Source: an uncultured virus (IMG/VR IMGVR_UViG_651053001_000005)
Lineage: Duplodnaviria; Heunggongvirae; Uroviricota; Caudoviricetes
Length of the DNA: 64,000 nucleotides
Strand: one strand, 5' to 3'
Virus record (IMG/VR): IMGVR_UViG_651053001_000005
Coordinates: 1-64,000 of that record
In this document: in pieces, positions 3,920 through 61,857 of the stretch
Position numbering within the stretch: position 1 is the first letter of the stretch
Layout of the letters: every line of letters starts with the position of its first letter
The notes under the pieces: model-generated
The model's input: the letters and a program-made list of their open reading frames with translations, nothing else
Told to the model about the DNA's origin: nothing
Database searches by the model: none
Made by a program: the position numbers and the translations under genes

Positions 3920-3943
3920 TCATGCTCCATGACCAATTGACAT
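3920..3943 (-). CDS. 7-codon mini-ORF MSIGHGA, arbitrium-like peptide
   Basis: GAGGTGA-tttaa-ATG TCA ATT GGT CAT GGA GCA TGA in the yotB/sspC intergenic region. Confidence 0.7.
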
Positions 3944-14484: not shown

Positions 14485-17400
14485 GACACCCTTCTTGAGT
14501 CGTATCCTTTGTTCTTGCATAATACAGTGTTTTAATTCCTTTATGATGAGCGTAGAGATCTATTCTATTTAGGTCTCTTGTCGTCATCGTATCCTTTAAG
14601 AACAACGTAAAAGAAATTCCTTGGTCGACGTGCTGCTGAATTGTTGCAATAAGATCAACTACCTTAAACATATCCATGTCGTATGCTTCCTTATAAAAGA
14701 ACCAATTCTGAGCCGATAAACCTGGCATTGGATAATATGTCTTACTGTTTCCGTATGTACGTTCCTCAATTCTCTCCATAATAGGCATTACACCGGCCGT
14801 AGATGATTGAACATATGAGATGCTTCCTGTAGGTGCAACAGCTTGCCTATACGAATGATACAACCCATATTTCATAACATCCTCTTTAAGCTTCATCCAA
14901 TCTTCAATGTTAGGAATATGTTGATCTCCAAACAGGCTTTTAACCTTTTCATATTTAGGGCTATAATCAATTGTCACGTACTTATCAAAATACTCGCCTG
15001 ATTTGTAAGTTGATCCGTGAAACTTGTAGTACGTCTCCCCTGTTTCTTTTGCAATTTCCATTGAACGTTGCAGGGAGTAGAAGTTAACCATCATAAAGTA
15101 TGTATTTGCAAAGTCCTTAGCTTCTTCACTTTCATAAGCAATTTTATTTTGAGCTAAAAAACCATGTAGATTCATCTGCCCAAGACCAATTGATCGCATT
15201 AGTGTATTTGCTCTCGCAACTGCTGGAGCATTTACAATGTTTGTTTTCCTTGTGACAGTTGTCAGTGAGTCAATTGCTATTCTGACTGTTGAAGCAATTG
15301 ATTGATTACTCATTACATTTACAATGTTCATTGAGCCAAGATTACAAGAGATATCTAAGCCAATTTCATCTACCTGATCGTAATCTGTATAAACTGACAC
15401 TTGTGACGCTTGGAGCACCTCTGACTTTAATATTCAACGAAAGGCGCAACACTCTCGTCCGTTCTCTTATGAACTGCTTACGATCACTCGTAAGAATAGA
15501 CTATATCATCGACCTATAAGGCCGCCCGCCGTTTCCATCGCCATATGCTTGCGATGTACTCTACTCCCTTACGCGTATACGTGGTTTCGATAGTCGTTCG
15601 GCATTTCCGCAAGGTGCGGTTTAGCACGGTATTGTCTATTGAATAGAGTTTCACCGTTTAGACGGGTTTGCTACGATCATTGCTGACCGAAGGTGCTACA
15701 GTTAACACAAATTAGAAAACTTCACTTTTGAAATATGTTCATTTGGATGCACTTTATTTACATTGTCAGCAAACATGATATAAGGATAGCCAGATTCGCT
15801 TCTTAGAATGGCCAATTGCTCCAACAACTTTCGAGCATTGCCCTTTGTTTTCCTAACTTTAGGGTTTTCAACAAGCTCATCATACATTTTGTTGATATCC
15901 ATCTCATCAAGATACTGCCCATATTCTTTGTAAACTGAATGAGGATAGAGCATGTAAAAATCCTTATCTTCTCTTGCCAATTCAATAAATTTATCAGGAA
16001 GCACTACACCAATAGACAGTGTTTTAACTCGAACATCTTCATCTGCTGAGATTTTTTTGGTCAACTATCCCCCTATTTCTAAGGGGGCTGGACTATATCT
16101 TCATCTTAGTAAGATGCTTTGCGCTTCAACCGGCGCTAATCTCCGGCTTACAATTAGTCTCTACACCTTCCGAGCACCTGTAATAATTTTTGAATTTGGG
16201 GTTGTTTACACGACTATTTATTGTGTTTCTACTAATATTTAGTCGCCTACCTGCTTCTGACATAGAATGATAGTAAACTCCGTCTACAATAATCCCGACC
16301 CTATTTCCGTTGTTAAGACTAAGCTTAAGACAAGTTTCTTTTGTCTTCTTTCTTCCCTTACGAGATAAAGACATTTTTTGCTTAGTTTCCTCAGTGTGCT
16401 TCCTTCCATCAAAACGCTTCTTTATTTTGCTCCGCATTTTCTCCATATGTTCAGGCTTGTCGTACCAATAATTTTTTTTCCCTGAATTAATTTTGGATGA
16501 GTTACGTCTAACTTTCTCTGAATGAGTCTTCCCAAACATAGGATTTTTTTCTCCCTTGTAAGACATTCCAAATGCATTGTCATAAAGATTGTATAACTGT
16601 TCTTTTTCAGAATTGGATAGGAATTCTTGTTCTTTTTTATATAGATCAAAACGATTTATGCAATCAGAGTGATACAAAACTTCAAATCGAAAATTATTCT
16701 CTCCATATGTATTAAAGTCTTCTTGTAATGGCTTATTGTGATGTGAACCAGCTTTTAGTAATCCTAAATGCGCTGTCTTCCTTTTCCTGAAATTTGCGCT
16801 ACTTCCTATGTAGAACTTGTCGTTTTTAATATTTCTTATTTTATATACAGCCTTCAATGTTTCACCTCCTTTCGTGCTCGGCTTGGCACGGGATTGCCAC
16901 CACCATTATGTGCTGAGGTTCCCCCGTTAGCCCTGAATCAGGACACCGCTTTTGCTTGCGTTCACAAAGTTTTCACTGCCATATTGCTATAACAGGCGAC
17001 TACCAATTAATCGAGAAAATCAATAATATCTGGATGGAATACATTTAGATAAGCTGCTCCAGACCCTTGCCTTTGCAGACCATTCAGACGTGTTCGCTAA
17101 GCACGCCTCGCCATACGGCTGCTTCATGTTACCATGAAGGTTAGACTATATCTTCACCCTCTAAGGGTGCCTCCTGTTTCGACTGCCAATAGCTTGCAGC
17201 CTACGCCTTTCGGCTAGTCGTTGCACGTTCAAGACGTTTGATCTAAGTGTTTCCACTTTTGCCGCAAACAGATTTTTTTAATGATTGTTTTACTCGCATA
17301 TGTATGTATTTCAGAGAGTTCTTTAATGGACTTACCACTTTTAAAATCATTTAAAATTGACAGTGCTTGAATTTCAGTAATTTTAGCCTTTGGGCTTTTT

Positions 17401-40645: not shown

Positions 40646-40691
40646 TAAAAAGAGTTGAGCTGCAGATAACAGCTCGACAGAGTGCTTAACT

Positions 40692-41075
40692 TTAGCTGGG
40701 AAAGTTGTTAACCCTTTTAAGGTGGTTATCCATATGTTTTAATATATGAAGTTTTTCATTAAAATTCATATATTCTTCTTTAGTAATTTTCTTTGCTAAT
40801 TGATATTGACGTGAATCTAATTGAACTTTATGTCCGAGTTTATCTTTAATAATTACGTGTTTAACATTAAAAATCTTGTATACTTCATAAAAGGAGTTCA
40901 TATCTAGATCATCATATTTGTTTGCACCATTGCCACTTTCTTTAATTCTGTTACCATCATTGTCTATACGTCGTGTATCGATTGGCTTCACAAAATCACC
41001 CAATCGAGGTCTTCTATTAAGAGTTTGAAAGTAAACCGTTTCACCGTGCTCGTTTTTTGCTGTTAAGAAGTTCAT
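40692..41075 (-). CDS. hypothetical protein
   Basis: ORF track, AAGGAG RBS, downstream terminator 40647-40678. Confidence 0.7.
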   Translation of the reverse strand: MNFLTAKNEHGETVYFQTLNRRPRLGDFVKPIDTRRIDNDGNRIKESGNGANKYDDLDMNSFYEVYKIFNVKHVIIKDKLGHKVQLDSRQYQLAKKITKEEYMNFNEKLHILKHMDNHLKRVNNFPS

Positions 41076-41116
41076 TTGCTTCTCCTTTATCGACGATATT
41101 TTTTAGAATACCTCAT

Positions 41117-41144
41117 AAAAGAAGAGCCGCTTAAATAGCAACTC
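41117..41144 (-). terminator. intrinsic terminator closing the mini-ORF unit
   Basis: GAGUUGCU-auuua-AGCGGCUC-UUCUUUU. Confidence 0.7.
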
Positions 41145-41159
41145 AAAATGTTTATCTTA

Positions 41160-41183
41160 TTAGCCTCCCACTCTAACTCCCAT
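41160..41183 (-). CDS. mini-ORF MGVRVGG
   Basis: GGAGG-N7-ATG GGA GTT AGA GTG GGA GGC TAA TAA. Confidence 0.55.
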   Translation of the reverse strand: MGVRVGG

Positions 41184-41186
41184 GAC

Positions 41187-41213
41187 TCAGCCTCCAATAG
41201 AATTGATGGACAT
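41187..41213 (-). CDS. mini-ORF MSINSIGG
   Basis: TGgTATAAT (41237-41245), AAGGAG-N7-ATG TCC ATC AAT TCT ATT GGA GGC TGA. Confidence 0.6.
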   Translation of the reverse strand: MSINSIGG

Positions 41214-41266
41214 AATACCACTCCTTTATTAATTCAATTATACCATTTACAAAGGAGTTTGAATAA

Positions 41267-41644
41267 TCAAATAACCTCACTCCAAGACCACATGTTCATT
41301 GTTTGCAGCGTAAACCCATCAGGAAGCTTTTTCATTTTAACATTCACATTGTATCTCTTCCCAGTAGTCTTATGGATCACAGCAAGTTCTTCACCATCAT
41401 AGAACCGCACAATTGCTTCATTAAATTCAATTGGCTGATCAACCACATAACCTTCTTTAAGCGCTCTGATATACAGATAAGGGTCTGTCTTATAAAGCTC
41501 ATATAGTCTATTACCAAAGTCTTCGTGTTTATCTCTAAGCAGATTAAAATTAATCAGGGATATGTACAGTTTTTCAGATATGTTCAGCTTGTTCTTGAAA
41601 TACCGGATTGCTTCATCTTGTTCTTTGGTTAAAATATTGGCCAT
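41267..41644 (-). CDS. yorC: hypothetical protein
   Basis: Synteny, recalled sequence. Confidence 0.65.
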   Translation of the reverse strand: MANILTKEQDEAIRYFKNKLNISEKLYISLINFNLLRDKHEDFGNRLYELYKTDPYLYIRALKEGYVVDQPIEFNEAIVRFYDGEELAVIHKTTGKRYNVNVKMKKLPDGFTLQTMNMWSWSEVI

Positions 41645-61696: not shown

Positions 61697-61828
61697 TTAA
61701 GCTCCCCGAATTGCACTTGCTACAGAGATCTCATCAGAAGCTGATGCCGTATTAACTGAATGTTGACCTGCAATGAATGAAATTGCTAATGCTGCTAAAA
61801 TGGCTGTACCGAAAATAATTTTCTTCAT
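61697..61828 (-). CDS. aimP: arbitrium pre-pro-peptide, mature SAIRGA
   Basis: MKKIIFGTAILAALAISFIAGQHSVNTASASDEISVASAIRGA; AAGGAGGTGA RBS. Confidence 0.97.
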   Translation of the reverse strand: MKKIIFGTAILAALAISFIAGQHSVNTASASDEISVASAIRGA

Positions 61829-61857
61829 TAAATTCACCTCCTTTCAAGTGCTAAATT

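Follow-up and report, generated by a model that had tools for sequence, protein, structure and literature searches.

Arbitrium signal peptides are among the closest described counterparts of the element analysed here, a cassette of tiny chained open reading frames (ORFs) in a 64,000-nucleotide (nt) stretch of viral DNA. This stretch, called the window below, is part of an 87-kb SPbeta-like phage record (IMG/VR IMGVR_UViG_651053001_000005). For 281 clade-2 arbitrium systems 26 mature peptide types have been proposed; those with a Gly-Gly end, namely DPGRGG, TIGRGG, AIGNGG, AMGNGG and KPGIGG, account for 23 of the 281 systems, and types of the form xxxVGA, such as GFTVGA and RPGVGA, exist as well (PMC13220667 Table S2). 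GVVRGA, GFTVGA and RPGVGA are known arbitrium types (PMC6458997; PMC13220667 Table S2). Among the Rap-Phr systems, PhrI with the sequence (A)DRVGA inhibits RapI of ICEBs1 (PMC3601965). The ORFs of the cassette are only eight and seven codons long in the window. The smallest genes and minigenes on record include the heptapeptide gene mccA of microcin C7, the lambda bar minigenes and the E-peptide of 23S rRNA.

The cassette is a conserved, unannotated element of two or three chained tiny ORFs, and it is present in most sequenced SPbeta-like phages. When GenBank was searched by BLAST with a phi3T-type query, a homologous cassette was found behind the yorC homologue in 20 of the 24 records of SPbeta-like phages with yorC. 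It was absent from two SPBc2 records, SPbetaL1 and SPR; in SPbeta, yorD lies at the position of the cassette. The records of phi3T, SPbetaL8 and Goe11 have no annotated feature at the cassette. The window type was found in 4 of 25 IMG/VR loci with close yorC relatives, the remaining 21 having other contents. Through wider scans one Bacillus genome, out of 49 examined in its genus, and two metagenome contigs were added; the matches of these scans were mostly false (1 of 4 true in the genome scan, 2 of 39 in the metagenome scan), and those to loose IMG/VR patterns were mostly due to chance. The 60 fetched loci with a cassette, which include 50 found by BLAST and are in many cases the same contigs again, gave 20 distinct versions.

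All parts listed in a first-pass annotation of the window were present on the minus strand as described: an extended -10 element, an AAGGAG Shine-Dalgarno (SD) sequence, mini-ORF A (MSINSIGG), a GGAGG coupling it to mini-ORF B (MGVRVGG), and a hairpin with a T-run. The two ORFs lie in one frame, separated by TGA and one or two codons. The units have only xTG and GGAGGNTRA in common, and an origin by tandem duplication or from a DNA repeat was rejected for this reason. The 87-kb genome has 1674 ORFs of 5-9 codons. An SD-like sequence precedes 175 of them, and only 3 of these 175 end in Gly-Gly or Gly-Ala, namely ORF A, ORF B and a further mini-ORF, M-SIGHGA, described below. The hairpin consists of 8 pairs (4 G-C, 2 G-U) followed by TTCTTTTATG, and was scored as terminator-like in a scan that gave 4 such sites in 2.5 kb, compared with 1.1 expected. 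In phi3T, the sequence TGaTATAAT is followed by three chained mini-ORFs, MVFGG, INIIGG with a GTG start, and MEVRVGG, and then by a G+C hairpin; each of the three ends in GGAGG-N-stop. A number of ORFs that varies among SPbeta-like phages had been anticipated, and two or three were found.

The start, frame and stop of both ORFs were kept in all 20 distinct versions. The ORF A homologue reads MINIIGG, with a GTG start, in 18 versions and MSINSIGG in 2, and the ORF B homologue reads MEVRVGG or MGVRVGG in all 20, with Met-Glu at the start in 12. The third, upstream mini-ORF is unstable: it occurs as MVFGG, as MVLGVKK after a deletion of 1 nt, as MVMVLGVKK/R after an insertion of 6 nt, or without ATG. 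Its G-rich tract is the SD of ORF A and persists where the upstream ORF has been lost or frameshifted. No longer homologous ORF was seen in any cassette locus, and the codons between ORF A and ORF B vary (GTC; GCT ACT; GCT AAT; GTT AAT). A single long ORF with a nonsense codon or with read-through was rejected on two grounds, the lack of conservation of the intervening codons and the presence of the stop in every version; the alignment of homologues proposed at the outset never gave one long ORF.

The variable columns among the 19 phi3T-type versions were distributed very unevenly. None of the 9 columns of the -10 box (TGNTATAAT) varied, nor did more than 1 of 24 in ORF A, 3 of 24 in ORF B and 2 of 6 in the spacer between them. 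Outside this core the figures were 33 of 57 in the 5' untranslated region (UTR), 7 of 10 between stop and hairpin, 8 of 20 in the hairpin and 26 of 29 beyond it. In the comparison of the window with the phi3T type, the promoter and 5' UTR could not be aligned, whereas the ORF core and the hairpin could. When all versions are taken together, 10 of the 45 aligned positions in the ORFs are variable; 6 of these are third positions and 7 are silent (ATC/ATT, GGA/GGG, GGC/GGA, GTT/GTA, GTC/GTG, GGC/GGT and TGA/TAA); the non-silent sites are TCT/ATT, counted twice, and GAA/GGA. Random substitution is silent in 22% of cases, and at least 7 silent sites in 10 had a probability of about 0.0005 in simulation. 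Between the window and phi3T, the mini-ORFs have differences at 1 of 13 first, 2 of 13 second and 3 of 13 third codon positions; for yorC the corresponding values are 21%, 9% and 45%. The start of ORF A has been exchanged, being ATG with one extra codon in the window and GTG in phi3T, in the same frame, and in both types an SD (GGAGG or GGGGG in the phi3T type) lies 7-8 nt before it. Since the ORFs and the -10 box are conserved, the changes are mostly silent and the start was exchanged with the frame kept, the ORFs are read as translated. On this comparison of sequences, selection probably keeps both tiny ORFs translatable and the cassette conserved. The coding-like signature (7 of 10 variable sites silent) also agrees with the first-pass expectation of conservation at the level of the peptides.

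The promoter proposed for the cassette was upheld in part. The extended -10 is present, and it is invariant in the phi3T types, where TGNTATAAT sits at another offset than in the window; a good -35 is lacking, and the window promoter was not on the list of the promoter scan. In the window TGNTATAAT was seen 3 times compared with 5.2 times expected, the copy in the cassette being the sole one on the minus strand. As the motif is no commoner than chance, the window promoter is plausible from the single sequence, and its support comes from the conservation in relatives. The extended -10 was scored as promoter-like (10 of 12, with TG) in another cassette locus, L036.

Table 1. Features of the window that bear on the cassette and on the arbitrium system
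Feature	Position	Strand	Remarks
yorC-like gene, 125 aa (amino acids), phrog_20815	41267-41644	-	cassette always directly behind
Extended -10, TGgTATAAT = TGGTATAAT	41237-41245	-	-10 hexamer 41242-41237; weak -35
SD AAGGAG	41221-41226	-	7 nt to ATG of mini-ORF A
Mini-ORF A, ATG TCC ATC AAT TCT ATT GGA GGC TGA = MSINSIGG* (8 codons)	41187-41213	-	
GGAGG = Gly-Gly codons of ORF A and SD of ORF B	41191-41195	-	7 nt to ATG of ORF B; GGAGG or GGGGG in relatives
Mini-ORF B, ATG GGA GTT AGA GTG GGA GGC TAA = MGVRVGG* (7 codons)	41160-41183	-	
Third GGAGG = Gly-Gly codons of ORF B	41164-41168	-	without start codon at SD distance; kept in all versions
Hairpin (41144-41124) and T-rich tail (41123-41114)	41114-41144	-	probably a leaky terminator in the window phage
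Orphan ORF, 127 aa, own SD	40692-41075	-	no promoter-like site of its own
Terminator-like hairpin behind 127-aa ORF	40657-40675	-	probable 3' end of transcripts crossing the cassette
M-SIGHGA mini-ORF, ATG-SIGHGA-TGA behind GAGGTGA SD	3920-3943	-	34 nt upstream of yotB-like gene
aimP, 46 aa, ends SAIRGA (phi3T signal type)	61697-61837	-	
aimR, 379 aa	61858-62997	-	

The genes around the cassette are all on the minus strand. They comprise a yoqZ-like gene, a yorA-like tail-spike gene and the yorC-like gene, behind which a gap of 191 nt is the site of the cassette (41114-41245); 3' of the gap follow the 127-aa orphan ORF, the terminator-like hairpin and yorE-, yorF- and yorG-like genes. The cassette is 97-100% identical in four IMG/VR relatives (L008, L009, L010 and L026), with divergence from the SD of the 127-aa ORF onward. 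This step in conservation (window positions 40692-41120) may reflect recombination at that point, or else the cassette is under by far the stronger constraint.

Apart from the terminal hairpin, no conserved RNA structure was found over the ORFs (fold z-score -0.54; consensus fold). In relatives the hairpin persists with changes on one side of a pair only, and no pair with compensatory changes was seen. No Rfam family matched the cassette at threshold, and the matches with E values up to 10 were weak and at the level of chance. One of them, a match to the preQ1-II riboswitch model at 41073-41159 on the minus strand that spans both the hairpin and the SD before the 127-aa ORF, reached 23.8 bits compared with a gathering score of 47 (E 0.25) and was taken as chance. 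The only threshold-level Rfam matches in the window are two group I introns at 15477-15769 and 17122-17290, both on the minus strand, with 65.4 and 52 bits.

A second leaderless mini-ORF in the same genome bears on the possible function of the cassette. M-SIGHGA consists of Met followed by the exact sequence of a natural arbitrium signal; the phage's own signal is SAIRGA. SIGHGA is the mature arbitrium peptide in 9 of the 281 clade-2 systems (PMC13220667 Table S2, file 2). These systems occur in B. subtilis, B. velezensis and B. amyloliquefaciens, and their precursors end in ...VA/SIGHGA (PMC13220667). An exact match of six residues to the short list of signals is very unlikely to arise by chance, and the companion peptide to which the first-pass annotation had pointed is identical to a natural signal. 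Relative to SPBc2 and SPbetaL4, the SD and ORF of M-SIGHGA form an insertion of about 45 nt in the yotB leader. The 24 nt of the ORF were identical in 7 IMG/VR contigs, some of them without the Gly-Gly cassette, and the SD region varied. A leaderless copy of a foreign arbitrium signal does exist in this genome, and it lends real circumstantial support to leaderless signal peptides in this phage lineage. The two papers on arbitrium cross-talk that were examined do not mention leaderless signal peptides in their main text, and a leaderless M-GFGRGA gave 0 matches in IMG/VR.

The favoured explanation, to which a probability of about 0.35 is assigned, is that the cassette provides small cytoplasmic peptides that act in trans, perhaps on RRNPPA-type receptors. 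The unit would be transcribed from its own extended -10 promoter up to the closing hairpin, and its two strongly SD-led ORFs of 7-8 codons would be translated in a chain, the Gly-Gly codons of ORF A (GGAGG) serving as the ribosome-binding site of ORF B. In the window phage the transcript probably also runs past the weak hairpin into the 127-aa gene. The selected products would be the Gly-Gly-ended peptides MSINSIGG/MINIIGG and MGVRVGG/MEVRVGG themselves, made directly in the cytoplasm of the phage-carrying cell without export or processing, with the leaderless M-SIGHGA as the model for such a direct intracellular peptide. Their target would be a cytoplasmic peptide binder, most plausibly an RRNPPA-type receptor (AimR- or Rap-like) of another element or of the host. 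That SPbeta-like phages make receptor ligands inside the cell from leaderless mini-genes as a means of signal forgery and superinfection control is a bolder and rather doubtful proposal. M-SIGHGA would then be a copy of the arbitrium signal of a rival phage family, and xINxIGG and xVRVGG would be aimed at AimR of unsampled types or at Rap-like receptors such as RapI. The lysogen would feed false 'high density' signals, and incoming or co-resident elements would be pushed into dormancy or held there.

Several results weigh against peptides that act in trans. Functional genes of 7-8 codons are very rare, which gives any such reading a low prior. None of the 26 types proposed for the 281 clade-2 systems is GVRVGG, EVRVGG, INSIGG or INIIGG. 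VRVGG, NIIGG and NSIGG are absent from the searched supplements, which are possibly incomplete and make this weak evidence, and SIGG and RVGG occur in these supplements only inside longer proteins, never at the C-terminus of a propeptide. A full-text search of the literature for the peptide strings returned chance letter runs only; yorC, phi3T_132 and phi3T_133 were not mentioned in the literature search. A scan of IMG/VR for precursors that end in A-GVRVGG-stop matched 49 stretches, 19 of them with a real stop and none AimP-like; the 16 that read AGVRVGG all come from DNA with 52-68% G+C and have the look of chance matches. The comparison of signals covers clade 2, and searches with AimP proteins returned only 3 and 2 matches. 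The comparison of GVRVGG and (S)INSIGG with aimP- and phr-like C-termini that the first pass had suggested gave no match among the 26 clade-2 types or the other searched lists.

The form of the peptides weighs in the same direction. When the second residue is Ile or Glu the initiator Met is kept, and by this rule most versions (Met-Ile in 18 of 20, Met-Glu in 12 of 20) would give 7-mers and not hexamers of the arbitrium style. The Met-removable second residue that had been noted is therefore a property of the window (Ser, Gly) and not of most relatives. Phages of different arbitrium types have almost the same peptides, which is not the picture of a diversified repertoire. The Gly-Gly end of ORF A may result from translational coupling, since its codons double as the SD of ORF B. 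Third positions vary at 3 of 16 sites in the mini-ORFs compared with 30 of 67 in yorC (about 0.03 in a binomial calculation by hand), and the GGRGG-N-TRA motif with its immediate surroundings accounts for 4 of the 7 silent sites. On both counts the RNA sequence is likely to be under some constraint of its own as well. The decoy-peptide proposal therefore stands only in part: the mini-ORFs are conserved and probably translated, and M-SIGHGA fits, but no cognate signal was found for the two peptides.

The RNA evidence comes from contigs of four library runs, in which transcript ends, strand, local depth and single molecules are not readable. In two studies contigs of relatives with about 96% identity run unbroken from yorC across the cassette. 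A contig of run X8 corresponds to positions 40681-41639 and has a depth of 777, compared with 8 and 17 for neighbouring phage contigs, which suggests that the island of yorC, cassette and 127-aa ORF is expressed far above the rest of the prophage. A contig of run X11 corresponds to 40697-41639 and continues upstream. Both contigs end just before the terminator at 40675-40657. Runs X1 and X4 were uninformative for the cassette, their contigs being long (14 and 10 kb) and flat. The 127-aa ORF starts 48 nt past the cassette hairpin, and the scan listed no promoter-like site between them. In the window phage the hairpin is probably read through into the 127-aa gene, the RNA contigs being a weak hint to this effect. 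The cassette had been described as a stand-alone unit; it has its own -10 and hairpin, but with the 127-aa gene following at this distance and no promoter-like site between, it is not clearly stand-alone. The 127-aa ORF was found only alongside the window-type cassette (in 4 IMG/VR contigs and the window), with 87-93% identity of the protein. It belongs to no Pfam or PHROG family, and the neighbouring proteins are without a family of known function.

What follows the cassette differs among relatives. Three different downstream contexts were found, and in two of them a promoter-like site precedes the next gene. In phi3T, promoter-like sites and then a different gene lie behind the cassette. In the commonest type (Goe11, SPbetaL8 and L036), no gene intervenes: the next elements behind the cassette are the conserved region that precedes the yorE-like gene and the strong promoter of that gene. 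The homologous hairpin of phi3T and L036 has no T-run and was not scored as a terminator. Among the 25 close relatives, at least seven unrelated kinds of downstream DNA were found in the slot behind yorC. Since the contexts vary in this way, the cassette is not the dedicated leader of one gene and is read as a portable module in a hot-spot slot. It is a moron-type accessory element in a variable slot that extends from yorC to the promoter region of the yorE-like gene.

Two further observations concern this slot. Its alternative contents include a yorD-like gene, a small membrane-protein gene, a bare terminator and genes on the reverse strand. An A+T palindrome, AATAAAAT-N4-ATTTTATT, lies just past the cassette hairpin in phi3T-type phages and past the yorD terminator in SPbeta (L003, about 2290-2315 on the minus strand; L001, 2075-2105; L036, 1255-1283). 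It overlaps the promoter-like sites TTTACC-16-TATCAT and TTGACC-17-GATAAT and may serve the region 5' of the yorE-like gene as an operator or as a second promoter.

The strongest competitor, possible yet held to be clearly short of even odds, is a translated leader acting in cis, in which ribosomes that load on the mini-ORFs, or terminate slowly behind Gly-Gly, either stabilise the RNA or determine the read-through past the hairpin. It would act on the 127-aa ORF in the window; in other phages its targets would be different genes or the yorE-like operon. Precedents from Bacillus include ribosome-dependent attenuators and stabilising SD sequences at the 5' end (bmrB-bmrCD, ermC and the cryIIIA STAB-SD), and peptides that end in Gly are released slowly. 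In the window the next gene has no promoter-like site and begins 48 nt past a hairpin that is weak (8 pairs, 2 G-U), M-SIGHGA likewise lies in a 5' leader, and the RNA contigs of two studies bridge yorC, cassette and 127-aa ORF, ending at 40681 and 40697, but such contigs cannot reveal single transcripts. A constant promoterless downstream gene, as expected for an attenuator, was found for the window type only. As to an intrinsic terminator, the window has a terminator-like site, and the homologous hairpins of phi3T and L036 are without a T-run. Across the three downstream contexts, two have an intervening promoter-like site, and in the commonest no gene comes before the yorE-like promoter. 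No alternative antiterminator pairing was predicted in single or consensus folds. The distance from stop to hairpin is 15 nt in the window and 7 nt in phi3T, and a terminating ribosome would not cover the stem in the window. Simple ribosome loading would also leave the conserved residues unexplained. A dedicated role as leader attenuator for 40692-41075, which had been listed among the alternatives, is accordingly disfavoured by the varying contexts and the lack of an antiterminator fold.

An unlikely alternative, well behind a leader in our estimate, is a small RNA (sRNA) acting in trans, in which two to four G-rich SD-like motifs, about 28-30 nt apart, titrate a C-rich sRNA, an RNA-binding protein or the 30S subunit, and the ORFs are incidental or merely keep the RNA covered. 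Precedents are RosA of B. subtilis, a sponge RNA for RoxS with G-rich sites, and the prophage anti-sRNA AgvB. The recurrence of GGRGG-N-TRA two to three times at the spacing of one ribosome would fit, as would the G-rich motif that outlives the loss or frameshift of the upstream ORF, the synonymous sites, which are more conserved than in yorC, and the sRNA-gene-like combination of an own promoter with a 3' hairpin. It does not account for starts, SD spacing, frames and stops kept in 20 of 20 versions with exchange of the start, or for 7 silent sites among 10 variable ones. Nor was a conserved structure beyond the terminal hairpin, or an Rfam family, found, and the single complementary 12-mer in the 87-kb phage genome is at chance level. 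An antisense sRNA from the plus strand with CCUCC motifs was rejected, as no fitting promoter- or terminator-like site was found. Still less probable is a cassette without function of its own, as a junction scar of the mosaic yorC-yorE slot made of heads, tails and SDs of deleted genes. The slot is indeed a hot spot with many alternative contents, the order of SD, stop and start is that of the usual gene junction in the window phage, and ORF A and ORF B lie in one frame with TGA and one or two codons between them. A scar would not be expected to show strong purifying selection on the ORFs with flanks free to vary, or a core common to two types with unalignable flanks, and no longer homologous ORF was present in any locus; the varying codons between the ORFs speak against a read-through fusion. 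The least probable of the alternatives set out here, and very improbable, is a minigene effect in which short, strongly initiated ORFs load ribosomes, release factors or peptidyl-tRNA hydrolase. The lambda bar minigenes are a precedent for such an effect on the translation machinery, and the ORFs of 5-9 codons have near-ideal SDs and Gly-Gly-stop ends, mostly UGA. Internal residues would then not be conserved, however, tRNA-Gly is not rare, no tRNA is encoded in the window, and there is no evidence of toxicity. The remaining probability falls to mechanisms not thought of.

If they are translated, the mini-ORFs are among the smallest conserved genes known, and the cassette has gone unannotated in well-studied model phages (phi3T, Goe11-14 and the SPbetaL series). 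If the peptides act on peptide receptors, they would add a new layer of phage communication, in which private intracellular signals deceive competitors, and would bear on the debate about arbitrium cross-talk. If the cassette is a leader or an RNA decoy instead, it would be a portable and strongly conserved regulatory module of a kind undescribed for these phages. In either case, gene callers that ignore ORFs of less than about 10 codons can miss such conserved elements.

Compared with known systems, the cassette resembles AimP (PF26811) in belonging to the same phage group and in having short products with a Gly-Gly end, as in 23 of 281 clade-2 peptides. ORF B of the window would give the hexamer GVRVGG after removal of Met, which follows the grammar of GVVRGA, GFTVGA and RPGVGA. 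Unlike AimP, which has 46 aa in the window and about 38-42 aa in the listed systems, the mini-ORFs of 8 and 7 codons have no signal peptide or pro-region. No aimR lies beside the cassette, the true aimR-aimP pair being about 20 kb away, and its peptides would be intracellular and not secreted, with Met kept in most versions. With the Rap-Phr systems it shares the ligand type, Phr peptides being cytoplasmic ligands of 5-6 residues for tetratricopeptide repeat (TPR) receptors in the same hosts, and R-V-G is common to xVRVGG and the DRVGA of PhrI (3 of 5 residues, a lead only). Phr peptides are, in contrast, cut from exported precursors, and no Phr ending in RVGG was present in the searched Rap-Phr tables.

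Leader and upstream-ORF regulators (bmrB, the ermC and cat leaders, cryIIIA STAB-SD) likewise have a short, strongly initiated 5' ORF, a hairpin and, as in the window, a promoterless gene. The cassette differs from them in its two or three chained ORFs, the lack of an alternative structure, its varied contexts and its conserved peptides. The smallest genes and minigenes are similar in having strong SDs and ORFs of 2-7 codons, with a biological effect that comes from the product or from translation as such; the cassette, unlike mccA-type genes and minigenes, has no modifying enzyme beside it, no Asn end and no known toxicity or resistance phenotype. It resembles phage morons in its layout, with its own promoter and 3' hairpin, its position between conserved genes and its patchy occurrence in relatives, and differs from them in its cargo, which consists of two or three tiny ORFs in place of a protein gene.

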